Positions 26,381 to 61,980 of a stretch of 61,980 nucleotides of DNA are shown in pieces; position 1 is the stretch's first letter, and each line of letters begins with the position of its first letter. The notes beneath the pieces were generated by a model. It was given only the letters and a program-made list of their open reading frames with translations, did no database searches and was not told the DNA's origin. Source of the stretch: a virus; the IMG/VR virus record IMGVR_UViG_3300026290_000012, positions 1-61,980 of that record. One strand, given 5' to 3'. A program made the position numbers and the translations under genes.

Positions 26381-26388
26381 AAAAAGTG

Positions 26389-41992: not shown

Positions 41993-41994
41993 GA

Positions 41995-42077
41995 TGCGTC
42001 AAGCAGGACTCGAACCTGCGATCCCCTACGGGAAGAGATTTTAAGTCTCTCGTCGTTTCCATCTTGACTATTGACGC
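41995..42077 (-). tRNA. tRNA-Leu(UAA)
   Basis: GCGTCAA/TTGACGC acceptor stem, AGAGA-CTTAAAA-TCTCT anticodon arm, long variable arm, GCAGG-TTCGAGT-CCTGC. Confidence 0.95.
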
Positions 42078-42178
42078 TCTATTTACTTTATTGCATCTTA
42101 CACCATAAATAGGTTACGTTACGTATCCGTTATACAAATGGAATGATTTAATAGAGATAATTTAAATACGTAATATAT

Positions 42179-42580: not shown

Positions 42581-42620
42581 CCCCAATTTACTCTTCTTTT
42601 TTTCTTGACTTTTATACTTG

Positions 42621-42636
42621 ACCGAAAGGTTTAAAT
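42621..42636 (+). promoter_or_regulatory. archaeal promoter of the structural operon
   Basis: CCGAAAGG (BRE) directly followed by TTTAAATA (TATA). Confidence 0.7.
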
Positions 42637-42740
42637 AGTAGTAATAAAATACGTATATTATATTATATCTGTTTGTTAAACGGGTATAATAAACTATACT
42701 ATACTATAGTTTATTTTTTTGAATAGAGGGGTGAATTAAA

Positions 42741-43871: not shown

Positions 43872-43895
43872 AATAATAATTTGAGGTGAATTTTT

Positions 43896-44840: not shown

Positions 44841-44863
44841 ACTATTTTTGAGGTGACTATAAA

Positions 44864-45712
44864 ATGACTTTTCCCGTTGAATATTACAGACAGATAAAGG
44901 ATGCTATCGTTTTTACCGCGCGTAAACAGGCAGTAGCACGTAAGATTATTAATACTCGTAACATTTCCGGTGGTATTGGCGTTCAACAGTGGACGTATGA
45001 CACGGCAAATGAAGTTTCGGATGCTCTGCTGACGTATCAGTTTACGGACACCGCTGAGGATTGGATTGAACTTACTCGCACCGATGTGCCTATTCCGCTT
45101 CTGCATAAGGAGTATCGTATCTCGCGTAGGGATCTCGCTGCTGCTGCTCGTGGTGGATTTGGCATTTCGACCGCTACTGTTTCAAGTGCTGCTTACAAGG
45201 TTATGAATCTTGAGAATCAGTTAATTCTCAATGGTTTCGCTGCCGATGGAACTAACTATGATATCAAGGGACTTTATCAGAGTGCAGGTAACTCTTATAC
45301 CACGGAGAAGGATTTTGGAACTGCCGGGAAGCCGTTGGAGGCTGTTGCAAGTGCCATTGATCTGATGCAGGCTGATAACATTACTGGTCCGTATAATCTT
45401 GTGCTTAACCCCACTCAGTATATGGAACTTGCAACGTCTATTCTCGGTTCTGGTGCGGGTGAACGTGAAATAGCAATGGTCAAGGAGATTCTTGAGGGTG
45501 GAAATATTTACTCTACGTCCTTCCAGCCTGCTGGAACGGGTATGCTTCTTGCTGATGCTTCTGCCGGTTTCTTTGAAATGATTGTTGCACAGGACATGAC
45601 TACCGAAACTGAAGTGCTCCAGAAGTCTAAGGATCTGTGGGGTAGAGTTTACGAGTGTGTGATTCCTGTTGTCTATGATGCAAATGCGATTTGTAAATTA
45701 ACCAAGATTTGA
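44864..45712 (+). CDS. major capsid protein, HK97 fold, encapsulin/linocin-M18-like
   Basis: ARKIIN, PIPLLHKEYRISRRDL, ENQLILNG, GPYNLVLNP; 282 aa. Confidence 0.85.
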   Translation: MTFPVEYYRQIKDAIVFTARKQAVARKIINTRNISGGIGVQQWTYDTANEVSDALLTYQFTDTAEDWIELTRTDVPIPLLHKEYRISRRDLAAAARGGFGISTATVSSAAYKVMNLENQLILNGFAADGTNYDIKGLYQSAGNSYTTEKDFGTAGKPLEAVASAIDLMQADNITGPYNLVLNPTQYMELATSILGSGAGEREIAMVKEILEGGNIYSTSFQPAGTGMLLADASAGFFEMIVAQDMTTETEVLQKSKDLWGRVYECVIPVVYDANAICKLTKI

Positions 45713-45727
45713 GGTTGGTGATTTACA

Positions 45728-46117
45728 ATGTCTTGGAGTAATATTGCAGAACTGCGTGGATTGGTAGAGACTGAAATACCAGATTCTACCCTCCAAGATA
45801 TTCTTGATATTGCACAGAGATACATTGAATCACGCATTGGCGTTCAATTAAACCCTACATATGAAATCCAATCGGCTCATCTTTTTAAATCAGCCGCACT
45901 CACTCTAAAGCGAATGAAAACAAACGGTGAATTGCCGTATATGTCAAAGTTGGGGTCAGCCCAACAGTATAATGAGATTGACGATATAATCAAAATGTAT
46001 GAAGCAGAAACGTCAGCATTAATTCGCAAATCAATATTCAGTGTTCAGAAAGCCTCAACTGGATTACCATATATCCGTTCAAGATGTAAATACGTTGAGG
46101 ATGAAGAAAATGGGTAG
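45728..46117 (+). CDS. head-tail adaptor
   Basis: Position after MCP; helical pattern IPDSTLQDILDIAQRYIESR. Confidence 0.6.
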   Translation: MSWSNIAELRGLVETEIPDSTLQDILDIAQRYIESRIGVQLNPTYEIQSAHLFKSAALTLKRMKTNGELPYMSKLGSAQQYNEIDDIIKMYEAETSALIRKSIFSVQKASTGLPYIRSRCKYVEDEENG

Positions 46118-46367
46118 CACAGAATCATGCGAGTTACAGCATTGTCGTTTACGGACTGATATTTTATGTGAAGTTCAGCGTAGGGAAGAGAAGCAGGATG
46201 AACGATTTTACGCCCTTATTGATGAATTGAGATTGGATTGGAAGGAGACAAAGAAAGAGGTAATATTAATTAAAGATACGATGATACAGGGTTTTATAGC
46301 GTTGATTGTTGCTGTTATTGGTGTTTATGTTTCTTACCTCTTGTTAAATGTTAATGGATTTTTTTAA
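46101..46367 (+). CDS. small coiled-coil protein with C-terminal transmembrane helix
   Basis: Start taken at ATG 46101/46110; hydrophobic FIALIVAVIGVYVSYLLL. Confidence 0.55.
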   Translation: MKKMGSTESCELQHCRLRTDILCEVQRREEKQDERFYALIDELRLDWKETKKEVILIKDTMIQGFIALIVAVIGVYVSYLLLNVNGFF

Positions 46368-46376
46368 GGTGGTTTT

Positions 46377-46757
46377 ATGCAACAGAGTGGGTTTAAAATG
46401 AATAATATATTAAAGAAATTAGGCGCTTATTGCACCTTTCTTATTCAGGATTCTACAACTCCCTCTGACACTTTTTATCAAGAATCAACCACCATATATA
46501 AAGAAGTAAAATATTGGGCTGTTGTTCTCCCTGCCCGCGCATATGACTTACATTCTAATGTATTTGGACGTTTAGATCGTACTGGAGTTGAACAATTTGG
46601 TATCATTAACATTTTTATCAATATTCAGGATGGTGATACCATTGTTCTAAACCGTGATTACTACGTTGATAACGTTGGTAAATACCAGATTGTAGGAAAA
46701 GAGATTTTTGGAACATCATACTACTTACTTGAAGCACACCTGGAGTCTGCACTATGA
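46377..46757 (+). CDS. putative head-closure (stopper) protein
   Basis: Neck-module position; beta-rich. Confidence 0.5.
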   Translation: MQQSGFKMNNILKKLGAYCTFLIQDSTTPSDTFYQESTTIYKEVKYWAVVLPARAYDLHSNVFGRLDRTGVEQFGIINIFINIQDGDTIVLNRDYYVDNVGKYQIVGKEIFGTSYYLLEAHLESAL

Positions 46758-47176
46758 AAACAATGGTGCAAGGTGTAGAGGAAACTAATCTAAAGTTAAG
46801 TCAGATTCTTGCTGCTGTGCAGGAGAATATAGATAATACGCTTGATCTCTTTAGTGCTGATATGACAAAGGAGATTAAAGATTCTGCACCATATGATACA
46901 GGTCGCTACATGAGTTCTTGGTTCTATGAACGTAAAGAAGCGTTGAAGTATGCAATCGTAAGTCAAAATTCATACGTTCTTTACAATACGGTTCTTGTGT
47001 TTGGCACAGAGAAATTCAAACCGATTGCCAATGAATCGAGATATAAGTATTCTGATTCTGAACGTGGTATTATTCATGATGTAAGACAGATTAAGTTTAT
47101 CTATAGTATTAAACTTGGTCAGTTAATTAAGCGTGTGAACTTACTTAATGCAAATATATCATTAGCGGGGTTATAA
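46754..47176 (+). CDS. HK97 gp10-like neck protein
   Basis: IKDSAPYDTGRYMSSW motif. Confidence 0.7.
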   Translation: MKTMVQGVEETNLKLSQILAAVQENIDNTLDLFSADMTKEIKDSAPYDTGRYMSSWFYERKEALKYAIVSQNSYVLYNTVLVFGTEKFKPIANESRYKYSDSERGIIHDVRQIKFIYSIKLGQLIKRVNLLNANISLAGL

Positions 47177-47574
47177 TGGATATAGATGGTGTTTTAAAAG
47201 AGATTGCTGAGTTCATCGAAGAGAAGATTCCTGAACTTGATTCTAAGGTTACTACCATTTATCCCGAATCGGAAAGATTCGCTCCCCCTACTGTTGTAAT
47301 AGACATTGTAGCGGGGAGAGAAACCCTAATCATCGATGGAACAAAGACACATGAGTTAGTGCGTGTTGCAATCATTTCTGATAAGAAGAGTGAGATCAAT
47401 CGTATTTTTAATCTTATTACCGATGCATTTTTAAATCATGGTCGGGAGTTAAAGACGGGCATTTACAAAGGCATAAGTTATATTTCTCCCGTTGCTCCCG
47501 CATTTGTTGAAAAGAATAGTGCAATGAAACGTGAATTAGACATTGTTGTAATTGAATTTAGAAAGAGAAGGTGA
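47176..47574 (+). CDS. putative tail terminator
   Basis: Position before tail tube; FAPPTVVI. Confidence 0.5.
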   Translation: MDIDGVLKEIAEFIEEKIPELDSKVTTIYPESERFAPPTVVIDIVAGRETLIIDGTKTHELVRVAIISDKKSEINRIFNLITDAFLNHGRELKTGIYKGISYISPVAPAFVEKNSAMKRELDIVVIEFRKRR

Positions 47575-47579
47575 AAATT

Positions 47580-48500
47580 ATGGGACAGAACGCAGGTTAT
47601 ACTACAACTGTTGAATATGTTAAAGAAACCAAATTTGGTACGTTACCTACGAATCCTGAAATGGAATGGATTGGTATTGTTACTGATGCTAAGTTTACGG
47701 ATAAACCGAAATCGTTTTCCACGCGGTATTTTACTGATGCTGCCTACACTGATCCGAAGTCTGCTGCCTACAAGCACATTAAGACTGTGATGGAAGCAGG
47801 CGTAGAGATTGAGTATGTGCCACAGGGCATTTTAGATGGGTTCTTAGGATTTGCACTTGGTAGTGATACTTCTTGCACTGGTCTTGTAGATGGTATTAAT
47901 TCCGTTACGATTGGTGCAATTATTACGGGTGGAACAAATAAGTATCTTCTCTACAAGGGTTGTGTCGTAGATGAGTTTACGCTCACCATTCCTGAAGATG
48001 ATGTGCTGAAGTGTTCTGCTAAGTTAACTGCTGCTGATGCTGCCGCACCTTCCGCTACTAATTATACGGGAACGGGTAGTAATGCAACGGAGAGCACCGA
48101 TGCAATGCTTACGTGTGATGATATTAGTGATATTAAGTTAAGCACAGACAATGGCAAAACCTGGGTTAATGCTACTGATATTGTGCGTGAGATTGAGTTG
48201 TCTATCTCGAATAAGAATGTCTATCTCAAGGATCTTGCCTCTGCTAACAGCACTCATATTGCAGGTGTTGTAAACGTGGGTAAGGACGTTAAACTTGGTC
48301 TTGAACTGTATTATGATGATCTTGACCTTCTTACACAGGTTCGGGCTCTTACACAGTGTGGATTTAAGTTTACGTGTGATGACAAGACTTTCACGCTTAC
48401 GGGTGTTCAGTTCCCCGAGTATCCCCTTGATGTCAAGCCTGATGAGGTTATTGGGGATAAATTGGAATCGCTGCAAGTTACCGGGCTTACAATAGCCTAA
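47580..48500 (+). CDS. major tail tube protein
   Basis: YVKETKFGTLP, GCVVDEFTLTIPE, IELSISN; precedes chaperones and TMP. Confidence 0.75.
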   Translation: MGQNAGYTTTVEYVKETKFGTLPTNPEMEWIGIVTDAKFTDKPKSFSTRYFTDAAYTDPKSAAYKHIKTVMEAGVEIEYVPQGILDGFLGFALGSDTSCTGLVDGINSVTIGAIITGGTNKYLLYKGCVVDEFTLTIPEDDVLKCSAKLTAADAAAPSATNYTGTGSNATESTDAMLTCDDISDIKLSTDNGKTWVNATDIVREIELSISNKNVYLKDLASANSTHIAGVVNVGKDVKLGLELYYDDLDLLTQVRALTQCGFKFTCDDKTFTLTGVQFPEYPLDVKPDEVIGDKLESLQVTGLTIA

Positions 48501-48519
48501 ATATTTTTTACTGATTATT

Positions 48520-48942
48520 ATGGTTAATGTTATTATTAACAATGAAACTTATGAACTGACTGATGAACCTTACCACGGCATTGTGCGTAAGGTTCGGAAG
48601 ATGCAGAAAGCAATGCTTATTGATTTTCTATCCAGGTTCAAGGATGAACTTGACGATAGTATGAAAATTGAAGATGCTCTTGCCATGATTGCAAATAAGC
48701 ATCCCGATGAAATTATTGAATATTCAGAGCGTGAGGAAGATTTCATCATTGTTACTACGATTTCTCTCGCTACAAATAAGATGTGGAATATAGAGGATTT
48801 TGACACTGTTCCTATTGGGGAAATGGATAAGATTTTCCAACAGTGTAAGGATGTTCTTGGTGGCGATGTGAACCGTTTTTTCAGAGGTTACGCGACGAAT
48901 ACACAGGAAGCACCGAAGGAACTCAAGTTGAAGAAGAAGTAG
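48520..48942 (+). CDS. tail assembly chaperone (G-like)
   Basis: Lies between tube and TMP; T-TTT-TTC slippery heptamer at 48876-48882. Confidence 0.72.
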   Translation: MVNVIINNETYELTDEPYHGIVRKVRKMQKAMLIDFLSRFKDELDDSMKIEDALAMIANKHPDEIIEYSEREEDFIIVTTISLATNKMWNIEDFDTVPIGEMDKIFQQCKDVLGGDVNRFFRGYATNTQEAPKELKLKKK

Positions 48943-49250
48943 GACAACTTTCTTTTTCAAACAATAAAGTAGCAGAAGTGCGTAATAAACTCAAGGGACG
49001 TAAATACTTACGCAATCTTCTGGAAAAAGATACTTATTACAAAAAAATAGCGCGATGGAAACATGCATTGCGTAATGGGTCTGATGATGAAGATTTCGCA
49101 GACTTTGTATTAATTGATGCTTTTGGTTGGTCATGGGATGAATTAAACAATATTCCAGAACAGAAGTATCTTGCTATTTCTAAAATATTATCCTTAAAGA
49201 ATGCTGAAGAAGCAAAGCAGGCTAAGCGCCAAAAGATTAAGAAAAGGTGA
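48879..49250 (+). CDS. -1 frameshift extension of the tail chaperone (GT-like)
   Basis: -1 frame open from 48879 through GTG 48978 to stop 49250. Confidence 0.7.
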   Translation, partial: FQRLRDEYTGSTEGTQVEEEVGQLSFSNNKVAEVRNKLKGRKYLRNLLEKDTYYKKIARWKHALRNGSDDEDFADFVLIDAFGWSWDELNNIPEQKYLAISKILSLKNAEEAKQAKRQKIKKR

Positions 49251-49255
49251 TATTG

Positions 49256-52200
49256 ATGCAACTTGGAGATAATGACATTGTAATTTATGTCGGCGGTAAT
49301 ATTACTGACTTCCAGCAGAAGATGGCACAGGCACAAGGTATTACCGCTACCACAAGTGCATCAATGGCTGCTACATTCAATCGTGCAATGAATGGTGTAA
49401 GCGAAACAATGCGAAGAACGGGTAACACCCTGGTTGGTGCTGCCGGTGCTGCTTCGATTGGTGTTATTTATCCCATTACACGCATTGCATCTGCTATTTT
49501 TGATACAGGTAAGGAGTTTGATTTACTCTCACAGAAAACTGTATCAGTCTTTGACTTAATGGGTAGAAGTGTAAACGATGTAAGGGAAGATTTACAGCAG
49601 TTTGCGTATGATCTCGCCGGTTCAACAATGTTTACTGCCAATGACATTATGGAGTCCATGTATGGCATGGCTCAGGCAGGTATGCAGGTTGAAGATGTTT
49701 ACGCTATAATGCCTGAAGTAATCAACCTTGCAACGGCACAATCCACTGATCTTGATACTGCTTTCAAGATGCTATTTGCTACTCTTTCTGCTTACAAAAT
49801 GGAAGCGACAGAAGCAACACGCGTTACACATGCTATTGCTGCTGCTGCTAGTGCATCAGTCCTTGATGTTGAAGATTTAGTCCTTGCACTCAAATACATT
49901 AATCCTACTTTTGCCTCTCTAGGATATAGCCTGGAAGAAGGACTTGCAATGGCCGCAATGCTTCGTGACTTATCGTTTACGGGTCAGAATGCAGGTAGGA
50001 TTCTTCGTGATGCTTTCACTGATTTAATTGCACCCACAGCAGAAGCAGCAAGTATTATTCGTAAATATAATCTTTCTATCTATAAGAATGGTGATGAGTT
50101 AAACGGACTTGTCGCTGAATATCATAGTGCTGCTGAAGCACTCGATCAAATGAAGAGTAGCACATCTGCATCAAATGAAGAAATCCAGAAACACAAAGAC
50201 TTCATGTTAGAATTAGAACGGCAGATGCAAGGTTTAGATACATCGTCTGAAAAATGGCAGAGTTTAAACAAAGCACTTGGTGAAGCGAGGTTTGCCGAAA
50301 AGGTAATGAAAAATGAAGTCAAGAAATCTAATTCTGAAATTGAAAAGCAGACTGCAAAAGTAAAAGCCCTTGAGAAACAAGTTAATTCTTTCTCAATGAC
50401 GGGCGTAAAATCACCTGCTGAAATTTTCTCTGAATTTAATCGTGCCATGTCAGAGGGTATGACTGAAGGTGAGTTTTCCAAAATCTTCGGTAAACAGTCA
50501 TACGCTGCCATGATCCAGATGTCAAAAGGAACCGAAGAATACGGTGAACTTTTAGAGCAGATTACGTATGATGTTGAAAAAGGTAGTGAGGCAACACGAC
50601 AGGCAGACATTATTCTTCAATCAGCAGCAGCACAGTATGAAATTCTTACGGGTAATCTTGCTACAGTAGCAGCAGAGATTTATGGTTCTATTGAACCTGC
50701 ACTTTATTCATTGTTTACTTCATTAAATGCTAATCTTGATGGATTGAAAGAATTTTGTATAATGGTTGCACAGAATTTCATACCCATTGTGCAGAATATT
50801 GCTGATCATGTAATAGGGTTAATTAATTGGTTCAATGGACTGGATACAAGCACGAAAGAACTTATTGCAAAGGTGACTGCAATGGGAATTGCATTTACTC
50901 TTATTGCTGTTCCCCTGTTGTTGTTTTCTGGTATCCTCATGTGGACACTTTCACCTTTTGTAAAATTCATTGGTAAGATTGGACTTGCAGCAGAGCGTAT
51001 TGGTATCTTACGTGCAGGGATGGTTACATTCAATCCTGACGCTGTAATCTTTGGTAAAAACATAATGGATATCAAGAATTCAGTAGGAATGTTTGCATCC
51101 TCATTACTAAACATGAATGGTCCTTTAACCACTACTAAAAATGGATTAATATCATTATTTGCACCATTTAAATCTTGTGAAGCGTTTGCTACATCATTTC
51201 AAAATGTATTTGTTGGTGCTTTAGCAAAATTAGGTACTGTATTTTATGGTATAAAAAGTTTAATTTTTACAACTATTCCAGGTATTTTGACTGCACTTGC
51301 ACCTCTTCTTGGTTGGATTATTTTAATTGTTGGTGCAATTACTTTATTGTGGTTTGCATGGCAGAATAATTGGTTTGGAATCAGAGATATTACTGCCAAT
51401 GCTATCACGTTCATAATGGATCATATTAAAATTCTTACTGATTTTATTAGTGAGACGTTTGGTGTAATCTTTGATAGTGTTTCTAATTTAATTGATGCAT
51501 TTATTAATGGTGATGTAAACAGACTGTTCAATGCTTTAGGTAGTCTTATTGGTGGAATCATCAGGTTAGTGGGTGGTTTACCGCTTAAGATGCTTGAGGT
51601 TGGATTCCGTATGATCATTGATTTCTGTAAGGGAATCATTGATGCTGCACCGAATGTTGGTTCTTCACTTATTAAATGGATCTTAAACGGTGGAATCCAA
51701 GAGTTTATTGTTAATGCAATCAAAGCGGCTGTAGAAGCAGGTGCAGCATTTGTAAAGGGTTTCATAGATGGAATTACGGGTAAAGCACCTGATGTCAAAG
51801 AGAAGGCTAAACCTGTAGGCAAGGCAGTTACAGACGGCATAAATGATGGTGTAGAGTCTGGTTTACCCGATGTCTATAAAACAATGGAAGATGGTGCTGT
51901 AAAGAGTGCTAATATATTTGAACAGAAATTCAATGAAACGTTCAGTAAATTAGATACCAAGAATCTTACCGAAGATGAATTAAATAATTTTAAGGCACTT
52001 GAACTTTCAAGAAAGGTTATTGATTTAACAGAATTAACAGACGATGATAAACAGTTCATTGGTGAACTACAAACTATTATTGAACAGAATGGTGGTGAAA
52101 TACCAGAGAAATTAAAGAAGAAAATAGATGAACAAGTAAAGGAACAGAAACCCTGGGCTGCCTTCCATGAAGAGTTTAGGAAAGAGTTTGATTTAATTCT

Positions 52201-53377
52201 TCAAGAATGGAACGCCATGAGTCCTGAAATGGCCCTAGAATTGAAAAAAGGATTTAAAGCGGCAGAACCTTTTATCAAACTTACTGATGGACTCCAAGAT
52301 GAAGAAAAACAGTTGATTGGTTTCCTTGACTCTGTTGCATCTGAATCTGGTAAGTTACCTGAAGATTTACAAAATGCGTTAAACACTAAACTGAAGATGG
52401 AACAGCCGCTTGATGAATGGTGGACTGATTTCTATCAGAAGTGGAAGGATACAGAGAAATTAGTTGAAGAGAAAATAAATGAAGAACCTTTAACTATTAA
52501 AGTTGAACTTGAAATTATACCGAAAGAAGAAATTAAACCAGAAGTTGTAGAAGAAAAGAAAGAATATTCTAAAGAAGAATTAGAGCAAAAGGCAAGAGAA
52601 GCGTCTTTACTTTACAATAATAACTTTGCTGATGTTCTTACAGGTAAAACAAGTGCAACTAGACTTAAAACGATTATAAACGGTGAATTTAATGAGACTG
52701 TAAAAGATGCAGGTGTAGCGGGTGAAAATGCTGCAAAAGAGTTTGCAGATAATTTCACTAGTGGAATACGAGAAGAGGATATTGACAGACTGTTTATGGG
52801 GCCTGTCTCTTATGGTTTTGATAGTAATTACACTAATGCAACTGTAATTGATTCTGAAGATATAACCATTGATGCAACTGTCACGCCTACAATCGATGAG
52901 GAGAAGAAAGAACAGGTAAAGGTTGATTCTAACACAGAGGGTAAAGCGTTAGTTGAGTCTTACAAGAAAGGTGTTGAAGAGAAGAAACCTGAACTTGACG
53001 CTACAGTAGATACAGTAAAATCATCAATCCTTGAAAAGTTGAATCTTGCAGAGAAAGCGTATGATCTTGGTTACACATTTGTCAATTCCTACACGAGTGG
53101 TATATTAGCAGCACTTCCCGCACTTCAAGCGGCAGTTAATCAGATGAATGGTATTCTGAACAGTGTAGAAGCACCACCTGTCAGTGTTACGTATGATGTG
53201 TCTGCTGCAATGGTTAACTTCGAAGGTTTACCGCAACTTCAGGGTAGCGGCACTACGAATAACTATGACATTGATGTAAACCTTAATAATGCAACAATTC
53301 GTAGTGAGCAGGACATAGATAAACTTGCAGATGCCGTGTATGAACGTATTAGTAGGAATGCGGGGTTAACAGCATGA
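49256..53377 (+). CDS. tape measure protein (TP901-type core)
   Basis: About 1370 aa, Ala-rich helical; TMFTANDIMESMYGMAQAG and DVEDLVLALKY core; membrane segments; typical C-terminus. Confidence 0.92.
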   Translation: MQLGDNDIVIYVGGNITDFQQKMAQAQGITATTSASMAATFNRAMNGVSETMRRTGNTLVGAAGAASIGVIYPITRIASAIFDTGKEFDLLSQKTVSVFDLMGRSVNDVREDLQQFAYDLAGSTMFTANDIMESMYGMAQAGMQVEDVYAIMPEVINLATAQSTDLDTAFKMLFATLSAYKMEATEATRVTHAIAAAASASVLDVEDLVLALKYINPTFASLGYSLEEGLAMAAMLRDLSFTGQNAGRILRDAFTDLIAPTAEAASIIRKYNLSIYKNGDELNGLVAEYHSAAEALDQMKSSTSASNEEIQKHKDFMLELERQMQGLDTSSEKWQSLNKALGEARFAEKVMKNEVKKSNSEIEKQTAKVKALEKQVNSFSMTGVKSPAEIFSEFNRAMSEGMTEGEFSKIFGKQSYAAMIQMSKGTEEYGELLEQITYDVEKGSEATRQADIILQSAAAQYEILTGNLATVAAEIYGSIEPALYSLFTSLNANLDGLKEFCIMVAQNFIPIVQNIADHVIGLINWFNGLDTSTKELIAKVTAMGIAFTLIAVPLLLFSGILMWTLSPFVKFIGKIGLAAERIGILRAGMVTFNPDAVIFGKNIMDIKNSVGMFASSLLNMNGPLTTTKNGLISLFAPFKSCEAFATSFQNVFVGALAKLGTVFYGIKSLIFTTIPGILTALAPLLGWIILIVGAITLLWFAWQNNWFGIRDITANAITFIMDHIKILTDFISETFGVIFDSVSNLIDAFINGDVNRLFNALGSLIGGIIRLVGGLPLKMLEVGFRMIIDFCKGIIDAAPNVGSSLIKWILNGGIQEFIVNAIKAAVEAGAAFVKGFIDGITGKAPDVKEKAKPVGKAVTDGINDGVESGLPDVYKTMEDGAVKSANIFEQKFNETFSKLDTKNLTEDELNNFKALELSRKVIDLTELTDDDKQFIGELQTIIEQNGGEIPEKLKKKIDEQVKEQKPWAAFHEEFRKEFDLILQEWNAMSPEMALELKKGFKAAEPFIKLTDGLQDEEKQLIGFLDSVASESGKLPEDLQNALNTKLKMEQPLDEWWTDFYQKWKDTEKLVEEKINEEPLTIKVELEIIPKEEIKPEVVEEKKEYSKEELEQKAREASLLYNNNFADVLTGKTSATRLKTIINGEFNETVKDAGVAGENAAKEFADNFTSGIREEDIDRLFMGPVSYGFDSNYTNATVIDSEDITIDATVTPTIDEEKKEQVKVDSNTEGKALVESYKKGVEEKKPELDATVDTVKSSILEKLNLAEKAYDLGYTFVNSYTSGILAALPALQAAVNQMNGILNSVEAPPVSVTYDVSAAMVNFEGLPQLQGSGTTNNYDIDVNLNNATIRSEQDIDKLADAVYERISRNAGLTA

Positions 53378-54423
53378 AGGCAATTCTCCGTGGACTACGT
53401 GATTATAATGTCAATTCCTACACGGTTACTCTGATGAGTAATGAGAAGAAATATTGCGTTGTTACCATCTCTGCAAAAGACTACTACACGCTTCAGAGTG
53501 AATCAGAGTTGATGTTGATTGTTGATGGGATGGAAATATTCACTGGCGTAATCAACAAAATCAATTTTGATTACTTGAACAATAAATACAACATTACTCT
53601 GGATGAACTTGCCTACAAGTTATCATTTGACTATGATTTGATGAGTAAAAGTGCAAGTTTTGACATCACTTACACCTCAACTACCTCTGACATCATCTTG
53701 TCAGAGATCCTTGCTAATACAGCGTTTACAGTGGGTTACGTGCCAATACAGACTATTGATGAACTAAAGGGTGACAAACTCAATCGCTATGAGTGGTTAC
53801 GGTTACTTGCTGATAATTGTGTCTGTGGCCTAGATGCAAATGGTAAATATACTACTGATTCTGCTAACATTGTCTCTGAACAAACTGCGTGTGATGTGTG
53901 GACGGTAGGAAATGAGATTTTCATTGGTGTAAATGGTTGCACTCGTAGTAACAAGACAAGTCATACCTGGAACAAAAAAACATGCAACATATCCAATGCA
54001 ATTATTGATATTCCAGAGATTGAAGTTAATGTTCATCCTGTGCAGAAGGTTATTGTAATTGGTAAGGATGGTGTTACTGGTGAGGCAAGTGTGGGGACAA
54101 ATCCTACCATTGTTATTACTGATGATTCATGTACAGATGTAGCCGCATGTGAGAAACGTGCAAAAGATGAATTGAGTAAGCAGAATAAACTTGCATCACT
54201 CACGATTAATGTTGATCCTGACTTGTTCTACTCAAAGGCGATTGAACTCGGTTGTCACGTTACTATAAGTGAACCTGCATTCATTGCTGGTGCGTATGAG
54301 ATTATTGAAATGGAAATTACCAATGATAAATGTAGTATTACACTTGATAAACCAAAGAAACGATTAGAGACTATACTTGATGATTTGAAGCGTCGTGTGA
54401 ATTTAATTGAGAGGTGGAGATAA
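53374..54423 (+). CDS. baseplate hub/tail-tip protein
   Basis: Follows TMP; VIVIGKDG..ITDDS..AKDELSK..IELGCHVTI pattern. Confidence 0.6.
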   Translation: MKAILRGLRDYNVNSYTVTLMSNEKKYCVVTISAKDYYTLQSESELMLIVDGMEIFTGVINKINFDYLNNKYNITLDELAYKLSFDYDLMSKSASFDITYTSTTSDIILSEILANTAFTVGYVPIQTIDELKGDKLNRYEWLRLLADNCVCGLDANGKYTTDSANIVSEQTACDVWTVGNEIFIGVNGCTRSNKTSHTWNKKTCNISNAIIDIPEIEVNVHPVQKVIVIGKDGVTGEASVGTNPTIVITDDSCTDVAACEKRAKDELSKQNKLASLTINVDPDLFYSKAIELGCHVTISEPAFIAGAYEIIEMEITNDKCSITLDKPKKRLETILDDLKRRVNLIERWR

Positions 54424-57321
54424 ATGTATATTGGAGATATTTATATTCCGTATGTTTCGGAATTTTCAGCAAATAAAACCACCAAAGAAAGTAAGGAAAC
54501 TAACTTCATCTCTGGCGATGCTGATCTTGATGAGACTACACCGAAACTGAAAGAACTTACTATAGCGGGTGTTGCAGCAGCATATGGAAGTAAGACTTCG
54601 GATGATTACGCTGATGATCTTGAGGCAGCATTAATACGTAATTCTGCCTACAATATTGTTGAGTATAATAATAAGAAGGGTTACTTTGTCCTTACTGATA
54701 TCGATATACCTGACACAGTAGAGAATCAAAATGCGCGTGAGTTTACTGGAACAGGTAAGTTCCTTCCTGCTGCTCGCTATGAGTGTTCTTACCGTGTAGA
54801 GACTGATTATGTTGATAGTGATTTTGCAATTCAGTTCCCTCCAATCATCGCCCTTCCCACAGGTGCAACCAACGTCAGAATCAAATCGCCTTGGGAAATC
54901 ATGTTTATTGATGAATGGCATGGAACTGTTGGCAGTGATGGTAAAATATCTATATTTAAACCGTTTCCTATTTTTGATGCTGATAACTATGCTATAACAT
55001 CTACAGGCACTAAAACGTTTATGGAGTCTGCCTACGGATGTTTTGTAACAGTGCTCAATGCACAGAATAAGAAAACAGAATGGACTACAACAGTAGGAAC
55101 AGACTTACCTAAAGGACGTTACAAGATTGTATTCCGCTTACAGGATTTGAATGTTGCTGATGATATATCCGTGACCGTAACGGGCAATAAAAGTGGTGAA
55201 TTAATTAATGAAATATTCACAACAGGTAAAACTACATGGACTACCATTGAGACTTCAGAATTTGAGGTTATAACACATGAAACGTTGTCTGTTTCCATAA
55301 AGAAGGTAAAAGCAACAACTAATACAATCAATGTAAACTATGGATTTATTCTTCCCACCTATACTGCAAAGGTAGTATTTGAGAATGATACTGAAGTAGA
55401 TTGTGGTAATGTCAAGGTGTTTGACACCAATGGTTCTACAACTGAATCTGAATGGAAACAAGTGTTTAATTACAACCATGATTTCTCTACGGGTATAGTA
55501 ATTCAAAACTCATTTTTCCGTTGGCATGTGGATACAAATGAGGTTTGGGATAATACAGGTGAGTTAACCAATCTCATCAATAATCAGGTAGGAAGATTAT
55601 ATCCACGTGCATTTAAGAACAATGATGTCAGTTACATTGTGAAGGAGATTCGTCCTGATCTAGTTGAGATTGAGTTCTCCCTGTTTGATGGTGAGTCAGA
55701 TGCAGGTGCAACAGATTGTAGAGAGATAGTTCTTGCTCGTTTCACTCCGTTGTATGTTACTTTTGAATTAATTCGTAATGGAACATTTAAATGGGATTGG
55801 CATGTTGATTTCAGCACTATGCCTTCATGGAAGGCGATTAGTGCGCCTTCTGATTTAATGGTAACATCATCGTTAGCAAACACTGAACATACAAGTGAGA
55901 ATGGTATCTTTACAGTAATATTTGATGAGTGTATTGCAGGTATTTGTAAATCAAAGAATAGTAGTGCATTAGTGCTTGGTGAAGGTGGATTATATGTAAA
56001 TAATACTGCTGAATCGGGTAACTTTATGTTTACACTTTTTATGATTTCTGGTTCCCTGGGTTCAGAGTATATATTCCAAAATACTACTGATGTTACATTA
56101 TCAAACGTGCAGTCTAATAGGATATTTGATAATTTTGTTGTTGATTCTTCTGCTGAATATGATGTAGAAAATGGTAGTAATTTTACTGAAACGTATGCAT
56201 ATTCAACAAGGGGTTTAAGAATAAAAAGCGACAATGAAAAATTAATTACAAAAAAATTAAAGAATTTAAAACTGGGAACAGGCAATTATCAAATGGAAAT
56301 TCAAATACAGTCTACAAAAAGTGTTACAAGAGAAGCGGGTTTAATAATTGCTGGTGATCCTAATTTTAATAATACATATTATGTTTGTTGTTTAGAACTT
56401 GATGCATCACAACCTAATGGTGGTAATAAATCTAAAGTTAAACTGCTCAAATTTAAACAGAATCAAAATAGTCAAGGTTCTTATGGCACTAATGGTTACG
56501 GCAAATATGGTTATGGTGCAGATGGTAGTGAAGTAGTTGCTGCTTCTAAAACTATTGAAGCGGTTTCAGGTGGCATTTATAATATTGATTGTGATTATAA
56601 TAATGAAGAACGCTCTTTCAAAATATATTTTTATAGTGTTTTTGTTGACAAACCCACAATACCCACAATTACTTATATTGGCGATGAAACATTTGAATAT
56701 GGTAATGTTGGTTTATTTGTTCGTTCTTCTAGTGTTGGTATAGGTAATGTTGATGTTGTATTTTGGGAAATGAAAGTAACCGATTCAATGATTTATGAAA
56801 AGGCTGGTTATCCATTTACAGTTCTTGCAGGCACAACACATGGTGGTTCAATTGGTTCACAAACAATAACTATTTTTGATGGTATAATTGGAGAGGATAT
56901 AGATATTGGACGTTACAATTTAATTGTTCAGACTATTTCTACAAGTACAGCAAGTGAACTTACATTTTCATTTGTTAATGCAACAGATTCTACAACATTA
57001 GCCATTGATACATCTGCAAAAAGTGAAACAATCGGTGGTGATGCAGTATTAACGTCATATAATCATGTAATTGAATTTAAAGAATCTGATATTGGTGATA
57101 ATGCACGCATTTATTTAAGTAATACAATCAGTGGTTATTATCCTTTAACATTAATTACTTATGCTGCACTCATTCCTGTATCAAATATAGAAGGTAGTGA
57201 AATTATAACACCAACAAATCTTTCCTTTGCATCGTTTAATGAACAAAACTATTACAGAAATCTTGAACCTAAAGAATTTGGTTCAAATCTGTTAAATAGA
57301 AAGTATAAATCATACAGGTGA
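54424..57321 (+). CDS. large tail-tip protein with beta-sandwich/carbohydrate-binding-like modules (paralog 1)
   Basis: N-terminus MYIGDIYIP and several blocks shared with 58120..59955. Confidence 0.6.
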   Translation: MYIGDIYIPYVSEFSANKTTKESKETNFISGDADLDETTPKLKELTIAGVAAAYGSKTSDDYADDLEAALIRNSAYNIVEYNNKKGYFVLTDIDIPDTVENQNAREFTGTGKFLPAARYECSYRVETDYVDSDFAIQFPPIIALPTGATNVRIKSPWEIMFIDEWHGTVGSDGKISIFKPFPIFDADNYAITSTGTKTFMESAYGCFVTVLNAQNKKTEWTTTVGTDLPKGRYKIVFRLQDLNVADDISVTVTGNKSGELINEIFTTGKTTWTTIETSEFEVITHETLSVSIKKVKATTNTINVNYGFILPTYTAKVVFENDTEVDCGNVKVFDTNGSTTESEWKQVFNYNHDFSTGIVIQNSFFRWHVDTNEVWDNTGELTNLINNQVGRLYPRAFKNNDVSYIVKEIRPDLVEIEFSLFDGESDAGATDCREIVLARFTPLYVTFELIRNGTFKWDWHVDFSTMPSWKAISAPSDLMVTSSLANTEHTSENGIFTVIFDECIAGICKSKNSSALVLGEGGLYVNNTAESGNFMFTLFMISGSLGSEYIFQNTTDVTLSNVQSNRIFDNFVVDSSAEYDVENGSNFTETYAYSTRGLRIKSDNEKLITKKLKNLKLGTGNYQMEIQIQSTKSVTREAGLIIAGDPNFNNTYYVCCLELDASQPNGGNKSKVKLLKFKQNQNSQGSYGTNGYGKYGYGADGSEVVAASKTIEAVSGGIYNIDCDYNNEERSFKIYFYSVFVDKPTIPTITYIGDETFEYGNVGLFVRSSSVGIGNVDVVFWEMKVTDSMIYEKAGYPFTVLAGTTHGGSIGSQTITIFDGIIGEDIDIGRYNLIVQTISTSTASELTFSFVNATDSTTLAIDTSAKSETIGGDAVLTSYNHVIEFKESDIGDNARIYLSNTISGYYPLTLITYAALIPVSNIEGSEIITPTNLSFASFNEQNYYRNLEPKEFGSNLLNRKYKSYR

Positions 57322-57327
57322 TTAAAC

Positions 57328-57945
57328 ATGGTAAGTACTTATACTCCAAAATTGAATTTAGCAAAACCTGCTCATGGTGATGTTGATTGGCATATTCCGG
57401 TTAATGGAAATTGGGATAAGATTGATACTGAATTAGATAAAGCATTAAAAATAAGTGGAACGACGATTGATGCGGACAAGGACTGGGGCGGGAAGAACAT
57501 CACGAACGTTGGGATCATCACAGGCCGTGGTTTACAAGCCACGCAGAAAAAGTCGTACGCCGCGTCAGATACAGTGATCCACACCGTGTCCGGTCAGGTG
57601 GGCGCACAGACCGAATCGCCGAAGACAACCCACACGGCCACAGTACCACCGGGGTATATGACCTCAAAATTCCGGGTTAAGTTCGACTATCGCGGGCCCG
57701 GTGGGCGGCTCTGTTATGCCCGGCTTCTCCGGAATGGGCGACAGGTGGGGCCCCTGGCGGTCGCTACCGACGCCTCCTGGGCGACCTACTCGGTTGATCT
57801 CGATGACGTCGAACCCGGAACGGTATTCCAGGTTCAAGCATGGGCCGCGAGTTACGGAGACACTTCGTACACCCGCGACCTCCGGATCTGCGGGGAGGTG
57901 GAAACATATATCCGTACCATCGGATCGTCCGATGTAATGTGGTGA
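57328..57945 (+). CDS. short tail fibre/receptor-binding protein with chimeric GC-rich C-terminus
   Basis: YTPKLNLAKP..W..PVN.NWDKID anchor motif; abrupt GC shift near 57465. Confidence 0.65.
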   Translation: MVSTYTPKLNLAKPAHGDVDWHIPVNGNWDKIDTELDKALKISGTTIDADKDWGGKNITNVGIITGRGLQATQKKSYAASDTVIHTVSGQVGAQTESPKTTHTATVPPGYMTSKFRVKFDYRGPGGRLCYARLLRNGRQVGPLAVATDASWATYSVDLDDVEPGTVFQVQAWAASYGDTSYTRDLRICGEVETYIRTIGSSDVMW

Positions 57946-57946
57946 G

Positions 57947-58020
57947 GTCCTAGAGGCTGATCCAGAACAACAAGGATTGAAACTCCTGGCTGGCGCGTGG
58001 TAATTTCTCTCACACGACTG
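57947..58020 (+). CRISPR. solitary 37-nt CRISPR-like repeat plus 37-nt putative spacer
   Basis: GTCCTAGAGGCTGATCCAGAACAACAAGGATTGAAAC (57947-57983) has a GATCC/GGATT hairpin and a 3' ATTGAAAC handle; no second full repeat and no cas genes. Confidence 0.7.
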
Positions 58021-58036
58021 GTTCCAAATCGAGGAC

Positions 58037-58080
58037 GGAGCAGGTATGCATACAATCGTATACATAACCCCGGCTCCTTT
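58037..58080 (+). terminator. long hairpin plus short T-tract after the CRISPR-like unit
   Basis: GGAGC..ATGCATAC-AATC-GTATACAT..GCTCC followed by TTT. Confidence 0.5.
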
Positions 58081-58119
58081 AAATTATAATTCGTCTAAAA
58101 ATAATAAAAAGGTGTTACA

Positions 58120-59955
58120 ATGTATATAGGTGATATTTATTTACCAATTCTTTCCAACATTGATAAGAAATCTGTCTCGAAGATTACCAAAGAGATTGCA
58201 GGTATTAACGCTAAAGAACCGAGAACTGTTTCCATTCGTAGGAATCTGCAACCTATTACTCTTGAAGGTTATCTTTACAATGATGGTGAAAAGGATGATG
58301 CACAATACGCAGAAGATGTAGAAGCATTACAGTATCGTTCTGCTGGATATTGCTACACGAAATATGCAGACTTAGATGGTTTCATTGAGATTGAAAATGC
58401 TGAGGCACCACAGACTTCAGAGGAGTTAGGTGTAAGGAATTATTCAGTGGAAGGAAAGTATCTTCCTGCGAGCAAATATGAGCGTGTAGTGGAAGTGGAA
58501 ACAGAAATGCGTGAGAATGAATTTAATATAGAGTTCCCTCCGCATGTTGCTCTTCCCGTGGGCGCTACAAATGTAAGAGTCAAGACTTCGCAGGATAGTG
58601 TGAAGTTAACTGCACCTGCATTCATGGCAGGAGATATACCGATTTATAGACCGTTCCCTGCATTCTATCCTGATGATGTTACGCATTCAACAGGTGATAC
58701 TCCGAAGTATGATACTACGGCGTATAAGATGTCTTACAACTTACTCGATGCAAAGGATGAATATATTTCTTACACGTTTGTATCGGGTGTGGATGTCCCT
58801 CTTGGTTCTTACCGTGTAGTCTTACGCATGAAGAGTGACACTACAATCGCATCAGACGCACGTATCGTTGTTTTAAGCGGGGATAATGTTGTGGTAGATG
58901 ATTTGTATACCTTTGAAGGTAATGATGAAGAAACTGATGTTTTAAATGAAGGAAAATGGTTATTTTCGACTAATGAATCATTGCATGATCTTATAACTAC
59001 AATAACATCATTGGACAATACAGTTAATTTACGCGCAACATCTATGTTTGAAGATAGTCCACATTCACATATATTAATAACTGATGAAAATCAACCGATA
59101 AGTGGTGAATGGACTATTGTTAAAACTAAACCGTTCAATATTACACAAAAGGGTTTAACGTATACAATCAAAGTTCAAAAAGAAACTGATGATTTATCTA
59201 ATATTGCAGTTAACTATGGATTTCTCTTACCCGAAAAGAGAGCACGTGTTGCATTTGATGTAGGAGGAGAATATAATGTAGGTGAGTGTAAGGTATTTGA
59301 TACTATTACTACGGGTTCTGAAGAATCCGAATGGAAGCAGATTTATAATCCTGAACATGACTTTGTAGGTGACATTGTTGTTCAGAACCCTATAATGCGG
59401 TGGGTAATTAAACAGACTACCTGGAAAAATGCTAAACTCTTTAGTATATCAAACAACAATGTATTTGAAGTTGGTTCTTTTTACAATAAAGCGTTTGGTG
59501 ATAATCGTGTTATAATCAAGTTTAAAGAAATTAAACCTAATTACCTGAAGTTCACTTTCGAGTTAGATACAGGTAATGCAACCTCAATGTCTACAAGTGC
59601 AAAAGAATATGACACAGTAGAAGTTACACCATTTAATTTCATCATCAAAAAAGACATCATTGGTAATTTTAAAAATCATTATACTATAGAAACTGATTCT
59701 AAATTAATCATGGAAAAGGATAATGGTATTATTGTATTATTTGAACCAACTTTTGTTGGTGGTTTAATTAAATCTCATGATTTTGTAAGTGGGATTAATA
59801 ATGGTATTATTGAAACAACAAATAGTGTTACGGGTAATTCATATGTAATTCCTTTTGTTATTCCCCTTGAGGATAATAATACAATTAACTCACAAGATTT
59901 GGTTTTTCTTAGTACTGTTTATTCTTCGCAAAAATGTAAAGTTGAAGTAAAATAA
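58120..59955 (+). CDS. tail-tip protein (paralog 2)
   Basis: MYIGDIYLP, GKYLPA.KYE, FPPHVALPVGATNVRVK, GECKVFD..SEWKQIYN..HDF..IVVQN shared with paralog 1. Confidence 0.6.
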   Translation: MYIGDIYLPILSNIDKKSVSKITKEIAGINAKEPRTVSIRRNLQPITLEGYLYNDGEKDDAQYAEDVEALQYRSAGYCYTKYADLDGFIEIENAEAPQTSEELGVRNYSVEGKYLPASKYERVVEVETEMRENEFNIEFPPHVALPVGATNVRVKTSQDSVKLTAPAFMAGDIPIYRPFPAFYPDDVTHSTGDTPKYDTTAYKMSYNLLDAKDEYISYTFVSGVDVPLGSYRVVLRMKSDTTIASDARIVVLSGDNVVVDDLYTFEGNDEETDVLNEGKWLFSTNESLHDLITTITSLDNTVNLRATSMFEDSPHSHILITDENQPISGEWTIVKTKPFNITQKGLTYTIKVQKETDDLSNIAVNYGFLLPEKRARVAFDVGGEYNVGECKVFDTITTGSEESEWKQIYNPEHDFVGDIVVQNPIMRWVIKQTTWKNAKLFSISNNNVFEVGSFYNKAFGDNRVIIKFKEIKPNYLKFTFELDTGNATSMSTSAKEYDTVEVTPFNFIIKKDIIGNFKNHYTIETDSKLIMEKDNGIIVLFEPTFVGGLIKSHDFVSGINNGIIETTNSVTGNSYVIPFVIPLEDNNTINSQDLVFLSTVYSSQKCKVEVK

Positions 59956-59960
59956 TTAAG

Positions 59961-60326
59961 GTGATTGTTATGAATGAATTTGGTAATGCTTACATTGAAA
60001 AGGTTTGGTGCAATTCTGTTAGAACTCCTAAACCCCTTAAGGTTATTCCTTACAAGAAAGATTTTAAAGTATTCTTCAGCGTGAAGGGAACAGAAATAGG
60101 TAGAATAACGATTGGTATATTTGTGGATGATATTCTGGATCAGATGCTTACCACGAATATTCTAGAGAAAAATAAGAGTCTTGCAATTTGGTTCTGGTAT
60201 CCTTACAAGCGTAAGCAGATGGGTAAGCACATAATCCAGTTCAAGATTGGTGAGGCAACTGATAGAACGGCAGATTCCGTTACGTGGAAATATACTTCTG
60301 ATAAATATATAGTTGAGGTGAAATAA
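59961..60326 (+). CDS. small Ig-like structural protein
   Basis: Beta-rich; tail operon. Confidence 0.55.
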   Translation: MIVMNEFGNAYIEKVWCNSVRTPKPLKVIPYKKDFKVFFSVKGTEIGRITIGIFVDDILDQMLTTNILEKNKSLAIWFWYPYKRKQMGKHIIQFKIGEATDRTADSVTWKYTSDKYIVEVK

Positions 60327-60327
60327 C

Positions 60328-60501
60328 ATGGTTAAGTGGATTGTTACTATTTATGAAACATTAACAGCACTTAAAACTGCTGTTGAATCGATTGATAATA
60401 CGGTTGTTATACATATTATTCCTATCTTCAAGGATAATCGTCAGCAATATTTGTTAGCGATTGGTGATGATTTGTCAGTAATTGATGGAGGTAGTGCATA
60501 A
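60328..60501 (+). CDS. small protein (57 aa; not in ORF track)
   Basis: Manual translation MVKWIVTIYETL...; GAGGTGA RBS; TAATG coupling to the next gene. Confidence 0.6.
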   Translation: MVKWIVTIYETLTALKTAVESIDNTVVIHIIPIFKDNRQQYLLAIGDDLSVIDGGSA

Positions 60502-61892
60502 TGCCTAGAAAAGCATCAATACAAATTAGACGCGATACGCGCAATAATTGGTTAGCAGAAAATGCTGTTCTTAAGAATGGCGAATTGGGGTATGAAACTG
60601 ATACAGGTATACTCAAAGTAGGTGATGGAACAAGTGGTTGGAATACTATCGTTAGATTCGCCAACCAGAATGATGTTTCAATGTTAAATGAAAGAATAGA
60701 TGACGTTTTAACAGTTTCAAGTAATAATATCTATGGTGTCAAGATTGATACTACCAACCTGAATCCTGAAACAAGTGTTGCCTATACCGATGATGCAGCG
60801 GGATTTGTCCCTATGCGGGGTAATGATGGTAACTTTGATTGGGGTTCTTGGGAATTGCCGTTCAAATCATTAGGTATTCGTCCTTGTGTATTCAAGGATG
60901 GTGCGGTAAATTATTATCTTGATCCTAATGATTACACGAAGAAGATTGATGGTTCTAATGCTGATATTACATCCGGTCTTGATGGAGATGTAATGGTTGA
61001 AATTCCACAAATTTATTGGAAATTCAGTCAGAATGAAACTGATCGTTTTGTTCAGATTTCAAGAGTTCAACGTGAAGGTTTTGTTTGTCTTGCCCATATG
61101 CGTGGTGAAACAAAAGTTCCTGCAATTTATGTTGGTGCATACAAAGGGTCGTTACTCGGTGGTGTACTTCGATCTTTGTCGGGTAAAACACCTCTCAATA
61201 CCAAAACCCATGTAGAAATCCGTGGATATGCACAAGCAAACGGAGAGGGTTATGAACAGTTCTTATTTTATCAGATGCAGTTATTACAGATTTTGTATGT
61301 AATCTTCTTCAAGAATCTTGACGGTCAGACCGCATTAGGTAGAGGCAACGTAGATGCATCAGTAAGAATGAATACTGGTGCTCGTAATACTGATGGAATG
61401 TTTTGGGGTTCTACCGATGGAACCAAACAGATTAAATTTTGTGGTATTGAAGATTTCTGGGGCAATCAGAGAGATTGGATAGACGGATTGTGGTCTACAA
61501 CAAGCACCACGCCACCCAGAAAACTGTGGATTGCAACCGACGATTTCAACGTTGTGCCGTATCAGTTAGTAGGAGAGACATGGGTCGATGCCGAACCTAG
61601 ACCGGAGAATTATAAAGAATATGGAACTGGGTTTGATGTAAATAAAGATGGTTATGTTAAAGATATTCATGGAACAAATGAAACTGGTTTTGTAACAGTT
61701 AATAGTGGGGCGTCGGAGACGACACACTATTGTGATTATGCGTATCTTCAGGCGGGTTTCTTAGGTAATTTCGGCGGGTTTTGGACTAATGCGGGTACTG
61801 CGGGGCCCTTCGGTCTGCTTTTGAGCTGTTCGCCTGTGTATTCGAATTCGCGTATCGGCGGTCGCCTAACATGGATTAAAAAACAAAGTTGA
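60501..61892 (+). CDS. DGR target receptor-binding protein (Mtd_N-like N-terminus, C-type-lectin-fold C-terminus)
   Basis: IQIRRDT..W..N.VL..GELGYETDTG..KVGDG; GIEDFWGN..DWIDG; terminal GG.W..AG.F.L..S.S..IGGRL. Confidence 0.88.
   Translation: MPRKASIQIRRDTRNNWLAENAVLKNGELGYETDTGILKVGDGTSGWNTIVRFANQNDVSMLNERIDDVLTVSSNNIYGVKIDTTNLNPETSVAYTDDAAGFVPMRGNDGNFDWGSWELPFKSLGIRPCVFKDGAVNYYLDPNDYTKKIDGSNADITSGLDGDVMVEIPQIYWKFSQNETDRFVQISRVQREGFVCLAHMRGETKVPAIYVGAYKGSLLGGVLRSLSGKTPLNTKTHVEIRGYAQANGEGYEQFLFYQMQLLQILYVIFFKNLDGQTALGRGNVDASVRMNTGARNTDGMFWGSTDGTKQIKFCGIEDFWGNQRDWIDGLWSTTSTTPPRKLWIATDDFNVVPYQLVGETWVDAEPRPENYKEYGTGFDVNKDGYVKDIHGTNETGFVTVNSGASETTHYCDYAYLQAGFLGNFGGFWTNAGTAGPFGLLLSCSPVYSNSRIGGRLTWIKKQS
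61736..61870 (+). mobile_element. DGR variable region (VR)
   Basis: 61737-61771 aligns with 61946-61980 at 30/35 nt, with all 5 differences at template adenines; constant codons avoid A (GCG, TCG, GGC). 3' boundary estimated. Confidence 0.85.
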
Positions 61893-61944
61893 GGTGATAT
61901 ATATGTAGTAAATATTTTTTATCAAAAAGGGCATAAATGATTTT

Positions 61945-61980
61945 TTATACGAATCTTCAAGCAGGTTACTTAGGTAATTT
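61945..61980 (+). mobile_element. DGR template region (TR), 5' part, truncated by the window end
   Basis: TATACGAATCTTCAAGCAGGTTACTTAGGTAATTT versus VR TATGCGTATCTTCAGGCGGGTTTCTTAGGTAATTT. Confidence 0.85.

Follow-up and report, generated by a model that had tools for sequence, protein, structure and literature searches.

A compact diversity-generating retroelement cut by the record end in a tailed virus of probable Methanomicrobiales hosts

The last part of the virus record IMGVR_UViG_3300026290_000012 from IMG/VR (positions 60501-61980; the whole linear record of 61,980 nt was analysed and is called the window here) carries, as we hold with high confidence, the target gene, the variable repeat (VR), the spacer and the first 36 nt of the template repeat (TR) of a compact diversity-generating retroelement (DGR) without Avd, arranged as target-VR-TR-RNA element-reverse transcriptase (RT) and borne by a tailed, Methanomicrobiales-infecting virus of about 68 kb. 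The sequence components themselves, VR/TR differences that fall on adenines only, an intact RT in an assembly of the same strain, many VRs on one TR, the fold class of the target and an archaeal host carry this reading. Host recognition by methanogen viruses is little known, and few DGRs have been linked to an archaeal host by direct evidence. With its host order set by many CRISPR spacers, its full cassette legible in another assembly of the strain and natural VR variants available by the dozen, this system is a tractable case for the study of receptor switching in viruses of an order that inhabits methane-producing digesters and fermenters. The features concerned, all on the + strand, are the following.

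60501..61892, +: DGR target gene, 463 aa, encoding a tail protein; N-terminal domain Mtd_N, C-terminal domain variable and of CLec/FGE type (open reading frame (ORF), Pfam, PHROG and fold model)
60519..60635, +: part coding for the Mtd_N (tail-fibre N-terminal) domain, Pfam PF18454, residues 7-45
61736..61869, +: VR, 134 nt, covering the last 45 target codons; 26 mismatches to the TR of assembly L095, all at TR adenines; 10 different VRs in relatives
61854..61869, +: putative initiation of mutagenic homing (IMH) site at the 3' end of the VR, GC-rich (ATCGGCGGTCGCC...) and invariant in all VRs; the TR has the IMH*-like ATCAGCAGTCACC opposite
61870..61944, +: VR-TR spacer, 75 nt, including the target stop codon; 100% identical in the window and relatives; its 36-nt core served as a probe
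61945..61980, +: first 36 nt of the TR, cut by the record end; the same 36 nt open the TR in L095, L009, L011 and L016

The record ends inside the TR, of which it keeps the first 36 nt and lacks the other 98 of 134, and no RT is encoded anywhere in the 61,980 nt. A protein look-up with the exact target protein returned two further assemblies. One of them (L096), which comes from the probable source sample of the window, is identical to the window and stops at the same base; the other (L095) is 99.3% identical over window positions 60043-61980, with all 13 differences lying within 60221-60309, shares an identical target gene (463 aa), VR and spacer, and continues further. There it holds the full 134-nt TR (L095 positions 1903-2036), a 117-nt spacer and an intact RT gene (2154-3200, 348 aa). 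The TR fragment was also found in seven other viral contigs, and relatives of the target protein on nine. In L009, L011 and L016 the repeat likewise extends over 134 nt, and their 75-nt VR-TR spacer and TR are 100% identical to the window wherever the window has sequence, whereas their genes are only 81-90% identical. An earlier reading of this DNA, made from the sequence only, had placed an RT just beyond the window and had proposed that an extended contig should continue the TR, differing from the VR at A only, and then enter the RT; L095 has exactly this order.

Circular permutation, with the TR resuming at the window start, was considered and rejected, as the opening bases do not match; relatives instead imply a gap of about 6 kb. 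They bridge the window end to the window start over about 6.0-6.2 kb, which agrees with the CheckV completeness of 90%, and the region 3' of the RT in relatives joins window positions 2-353. This argues that the virus genome is probably circular or permuted, of about 68 kb, and that the record lacks about 6.2 kb of it. The absent part would carry the remaining 98 nt of the TR, the 117-nt structured RNA and the RT. The break in the assembly lies at the VR/TR repeat.

A repeat search aligned 61945-61980 with 61736-61771 over 36 nt at 86% identity, and all five mismatches are an A in the downstream copy (A>G three times, A>T twice), as the sequence-only reading had described. Over the full repeat the window VR differs from its cognate TR in L095 at 26 positions, and 26 of 26 are TR adenines, replaced by G (16), T (7) or C (3); against the TR of the relatives, 28 of 29 mismatches fall at a TR adenine (P = 4.7e-16). 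The VR codons ACT, GGT, CTT, AGC, TAT and CGT sit opposite AAT or AAC in the TR, which bears out their suspected derivation from AAY template codons (Y, pyrimidine), and the TR has 12 such codons in frame. The TR begins at 61945, 52 nt past the target stop codon (61890-61892), with no ORF between, in agreement with the earlier estimate of about 50 nt and no intervening gene. At the 3' end of the VR, the GC-rich segment (GGCGGTCGCC) is invariant and departs from the TR at 3-4 A positions, and fixed VR/TR differences occur at TR positions 122, 125, 129 and 132 in 10/10 VRs; this end may act as the IMH, with uncertain boundaries.

In the VR-TR spacer, an ATG-TAG mini-frame comes after a Shine-Dalgarno-like GAGGTGA, and at 20-35 nt 5' of the TR lie A/T-rich TATA-like boxes, for which a promoter role can be proposed. 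A 23-nt intergenic motif (A-rich, then GTTGAGGTGA) precedes successive genes of the tail module, at 59932-59954, 60303-60325 and 61879-61908; the third copy, after the target stop, leads only to the mini-frame and may be what remains of a gene start, or else a signal for re-initiation directly 5' of the TR.

The RT of L095 is intact (348 aa), begins 117 nt 3' of the TR and matches Pfam RVT_1, and an RT is also present in relatives. The motif IGNYFSQ ([LIV]GxxxSQ) and the catalytic YMDD occur in P0001 and in the L095 RT, at positions that are invariant in the RT alignment (A4). The closest solved structure is 8ub7, a 328-aa 'Reverse transcriptase' matched over its full length (E 1.1e-27), as compared with 7e-18 for group II intron RTs; both the RT and 8ub7, which we take to be the bRT of BPP-1, have GIPIG..SQ, and the RT has YMDD. 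Judged by these similarities, the RT most probably belongs to the DGR clade. With the full TR, the A-only mismatches and this intact DGR-type RT in a same-strain assembly, the identification of the element as a DGR stands.

The 117-nt spacer between TR and RT is predicted to fold into a 4-bp hairpin and a long-range helix. In the alignment 98.4% of cells are paired, compensatory changes occur in 9/12 pairs, none of 500 shuffles was as good, and the pairing collapses on sliding. The Rfam models RT-17 and RT-18 are likewise found 5' of RT genes and match the spacer RNA over its full length (L095 2061-2145), but score 27.3 and 23.6 bits, under their gathering scores of 40.4 and 41.3 (E 0.0047 for RT-17), so the element is at best a divergent relative of these families.

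Diversification is visible among the relatives. The TR differs by 0-3 nt over 13 contigs, while the ten complete VRs are all different, any two of them differing at 16-26 positions; of their 36 variable columns, 30 lie at TR adenines and the other six are singletons. Protein P0006 shares 97.2% identity with the window protein outside the VR but 70.5% within it, and among the protein matches VR identity levels off at 66-73% regardless of the identity of the backbone. As a 97%-identical backbone bears a wholly re-drawn VR, homing must be recent on the scale of the lineage, and these data indicate repeated, recent homing within it. In L014 and L015, whose targets are 49% identical, no VR/TR pair was found in the stretch searched. 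The claim of active diversification made from the sequence thus holds at the level of the lineage, with at least ten VRs on one TR, and present-day activity in this particular strain would be a plausible extension of it.

Several observations weigh against the reading proposed here. The complete cassette was read in another assembly (L095), and this record itself is without an RT and without 98 of the 134 nt of the TR. The window, L095 and L096 all share one identical VR. Two relatives from samples 3300038318 and 3300038321, L011 (RT at 9027-9428) and L010, have an internally deleted RT with an ORF of 133 aa. Potential hairpin structure 3' of the VR is no more stable than in shuffled sequences (z = 0.32). 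Finally, no Avd/HRDC accessory gene was found on the flanking ORFs with Pfam, PHROGs and NCBIfam, and TIGR02436 (Avd) was found neither in G000 nor in the records of L009, L011 and L016, so that the avd considered possible earlier did not turn up on the flanking ORFs or in these four records. DGRs without Avd are known, hence its absence is not disqualifying, and a divergent Avd among the small ORFs is possible. The 121-aa ORF upstream of the target was examined as a candidate and set aside, since it appeared beta-rich and not a helical bundle.

Some of these points lend weight to the view that the cassette is real yet a relic, inactive in this strain, with a frozen VR whose differences from the TR record past homing. 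L011 and L010 keep VR/TR mismatches at 31 and 38 adenine positions in spite of their deleted RT; their DGRs look like decaying systems with frozen VRs, and decay therefore does occur in this lineage. Such a state would also agree with the single VR in three assemblies of this strain. The L095 RT is nevertheless intact at 348 aa with its catalytic motifs, its spacer RNA is conserved, the TR and spacer are better conserved than the flanking genes, and the re-drawn VR on a nearly identical backbone dates homing as recent for the lineage. We consider a relic unlikely, and a DGR that is functional in the lineage the better account.

By analogy with the Bordetella phage paradigm, on which the steps are modelled, the TR and spacer RNA would be transcribed, the RT would copy the TR into cDNA while misreading adenines, and the mutagenised cDNA would replace the VR. 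About 12 AAY-coded residues on the CLec-type face of the C-terminus would be re-drawn in this way while the scaffold residues stay constant, and the altered face could change which host surface structure the virus is able to bind. Transcription, priming and retrohoming are, for this DGR, predicted by the same analogy.

The target itself has Pfam Mtd_N at aa 7-45 (E 2.1e-14), a segment that also matches the N-termini of phage hyaluronidase tail fibres in PDB, and among PHROGs it matches phrog_5302 'tail protein' (1.6e-69). It is the end of a tail module that starts at the tape measure protein and spans several large tail proteins. An AlphaFold (AF2) model built from 44 homologues (pLDDT 79.6, pTM 0.81) matches 5vf4 best in PDB (E 6.8e-10), which is the DGR variable protein TaqVP; next come PvdO/FGE/EgtB, Mtd and TvpA. 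Between the C-terminal domain and Mtd there is no sequence match and a weak fold match to 1yu0 (E 4.7e-3, TM score 0.22-0.27), so the modelled domain appears nearer to the TaqVP/FGE type than to Mtd; the protein would act like Mtd yet is probably no Mtd orthologue. The earlier designation as a receptor-binding tail protein is borne out as to the tail protein, by Mtd_N, the PHROG, a gene position that closes the tail module and a fold nearest to that of a DGR variable protein, while a role in receptor binding is presumed.

The archaeal host is indicated by at least 30 CRISPR spacers in five Methanomicrobiales genomes that match the window. A spacer search of window 42000-61980 against 401 genomes of the order that holds a Methanofollis metagenome-assembled genome (MAG) gave clusters of 33-50-nt matches, and the five array loci were then compared with the whole window by local BLAST. 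The regular arrays hold 10 such spacers in G053, 12 in G234, four each in G041 and G142 and at least one in G201. Their targets are spread over the whole 62 kb, and many match at 100% identity over 33-39 nt. A single CRISPR repeat (Rfam CRISPR-DR7, 37.9 bits) stands alone in the virus itself, at about 57947-57983 (or 57984), directly after the stop codon of a tail gene; the array of G201 is built on nearly the same repeat as the virus's own and holds one or more spacers against the virus. Two adjoining tRNA genes (window 41855-42077, - strand) encode tRNA-Leu(UAA) and tRNA-Gln(UUG). Many Methanomicrobiales genomes have host tRNA genes with 85-90% identity to the former, and the latter (41855-41992, - strand) has an intron of 65-68 nt at 37/38 that forms a canonical 3-4-3 bulge-helix-bulge (a helix, a 3-nt bulge, a 4-bp helix, a 3-nt bulge and a helix); its predicted splicing would require an archaeal splicing endonuclease. 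Because spacers against the virus lie in regular arrays of five genomes of that order, we assign the host, on sequence grounds, to a member of the Methanomicrobiales, in line with the archaeal virus proposed beforehand.

Methanofollis as host genus was rejected, as the 12 Methanofollis genomes gave matches to the repeat and no spacers against the virus. The 22-nt tail of the CRISPR repeat was likewise discarded as a host marker, being present in many bacterial phyla, in favour of the full repeat and the spacers. A bacterial host carrying an ordinary phage DGR, with the archaeal signals due to gene transfer or mis-binning, is very improbable. It would fit with the nearest annotated RT, which is that of Psychrobacillus phage Perkons (55.5% identity), with named target homologues at 45-50% identity, which come from Bacillota, and with the frequency of the repeat tail in bacterial arrays. 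No spacers against the virus were found, however, in 122 genomes of a bacterial class sharing that tail, as against the spacers in arrays of the Methanofollis-containing order; the full 37-nt repeat is nearest to the array of a Methanofollis MAG, with two mismatches as compared with 5-10 in bacterial arrays; and the tRNA intron would depend on an archaeal enzyme. As to chance or an ordinary duplication of the 3' end of the gene without any retroelement, the 36-nt copy in the window would give only modest support against it (11 A in 36 positions, 5/5 mismatches at A, hypergeometric P = 0.0012), but the full 134-nt copy with mismatches at A throughout, the adjoining RT and the recurrence of this layout at over 90 related loci refute it, leaving it a vanishingly small chance.

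The cluster of differences between the window and L095 covers about 90 nt (60221-60309) of the 121-aa ORF upstream of the target and overlaps the protospacer 60283-60319, which a spacer of G053 matches at 100%. It may represent CRISPR escape or a recombination patch.

A comparison with known systems shows a mixture of shared and divergent traits. Like the DGR of BPP-1 (mtd, avd, TR, brt), the element has A-specific transfer from TR to VR, a VR at the 3' end of an Mtd_N tail-fibre gene with a CLec-type variable domain, an AAY-rich TR, an RT with the [LIV]GxxxSQ motif and a structured RNA between TR and RT. Unlike in BPP-1, no avd was found here, the order is target-TR-RT with a VR-TR gap of only 75 nt, AAT outnumbers AAC, no clear hairpin follows the VR, the host is archaeal and the modelled C-terminal domain of the target is closer to the TaqVP/FGE type than to Mtd. 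TaqVP of Thermus aquaticus (PDB 5vf4) is the best structural match to the whole target model (TM score 0.49 by target), but it shares 17% sequence identity, is a cellular and not a virion protein and has no Mtd_N.

Among viruses of archaea, a DGR was described in 2015 for ANMV-1, a putative virus of anaerobic methanotrophic (ANME) archaea (Paul et al., 2015; PMC4372165). Points in common with ANMV-1 are that the virus is tailed, archaeal and of the methane cycle and that the DGR target, beside tail-fibre genes, has a CLec C-terminus resembling Mtd. ANMV-1 differs in having an Avd ORF, 114-bp repeats and a hairpin, where we find 134-nt repeats and no Avd, and in an RT that falls in an archaeal branch of the DGR clade, whereas the nearest RTs here are from bacterial phages (PMC4372165). 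Its host was assigned from a TBP gene and ANME-like proteins, and here from CRISPR spacers (PMC4372165). Caudoviricetes sp. vir215 (Methanomassiliicoccales, GenBank) has the same compact order, with a phrog_5302 tail protein, a 122-nt VR/TR pair and then the RT. The RT is 40% identical to that of vir215 and 43% to that of vir525 (Methanosarcinales); both differ in host order and in habitat (gut as opposed to digester and fermentation metagenomes), and the target is only 25% identical. A further virus, vir335, has a homologous tail protein with no RT adjoining. DGRs in archaeal viruses were already known from ANMV-1, vir215 and vir525, and the one described here is a further example of a known system and not a new kind.

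The DGR of Psychrobacillus phage Perkons (MT325768), which has the closest annotated RT, is also alike in its homologous target (36%) just upstream on the same strand, and unlike in its Bacillota host and 137-kb genome. As both the RT and the target are closest to versions from Bacillota phages, the DGR module would seem to cross the domain boundary, which points to a cassette shared between bacterial and archaeal viruses and not to common descent of the viruses.

Another observation concerns which adenines vary. In the family of the window, all ten VRs have G at 13 positions where the TR has A; three of these sites are synonymous (GCA to GCG). Further loci with related RTs, drawn from a clade of at least 577 viral relatives, were compared, 44 at first and then 80 more (L051-L175), and the VR-spacer-TR-RT layout with A-specific mismatches was present in 29/45 of the first loci analysed and 62/78 of the next. 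Over 75 distinct TR/VR pairs outside the window family, 330 of 345 TR adenines that precede G (96%) appear as G in the VR, and an A before C mostly becomes G too. AAY sites in the VRs are spread over A (38-50%), G (26-29%), T (9-24%) and C (10-15%). At four-fold-degenerate third positions the VR has G in 66/68 cases if the next base is G or C and in 6/13 if it is A or T; this near-constant G leaves protein-level selection as no explanation of the fixed A-to-G sites. The simpler rule that any isolated A becomes G was discarded, for TR positions 24, 50 and 119 vary or keep A, and plain re-copying of the preceding template base was discarded as a full account, given that A before C yields G and not C.

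A study from 2026 on the Bordetella RT in E. coli reports that fidelity is governed by the 3' neighbour, that dC is the main misincorporation and that the enzyme may re-use the preceding template base (PMC12875486). The change of A before G to G is consistent with that work, but neither the change of A before C to G nor the near-determinism seen here is (PMC12875486). Candidate causes are the enzyme, short-patch repair of G:T heteroduplexes and selection at the DNA level. We put forward, tentatively and at somewhat short of even chances, that context gates adenine mutagenesis in this RT clade, AAY adenines being randomised and A before G (mostly also A before C) being recoded to G, and, linked with this, that the cassette type moves between Bacillota phages and methanogen viruses. 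If this were true, a TR would have two classes of adenine, one diversifying and one silently recoded to G, the calculation of the diversity available from a TR would change, and natural sequences would be evidence that the context effect recently measured for the Bordetella RT can be near-deterministic. A rule of this kind, if enzyme-based, bears on the prediction of DGR sequence space and on the engineering of DGR-based diversification tools.

Other features of the genome include a conserved 184-aa ORF with a HELLH (HExxH-like) motif three genes 3' of the RT (L009 13380-13934; also in L011, L016 and L095), which follows a small membrane-protein-like ORF, has no Pfam match and may be part of a lysis or peptidase module. 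A ribonucleotide reductase with intein signatures (Intein_splicing/HINT) and a large terminase with a LAGLIDADG insertion lie at window 944-3532 and 20964-23486, both on the - strand, and appear to be two essential genes with intein-like insertions. A dispersed non-coding repeat of about 145 nt at window 26241-26385 has a further copy (71-76% identity) downstream of the RT in relatives, in the stretch that is the counterpart of the roughly 6 kb absent from this record. These copies are located as follows.

L016 3028-3172: copy of the ~145-nt repeat
L012 5912-6055: copy of the ~145-nt repeat
L003 4145-4289: copy of the ~145-nt repeat

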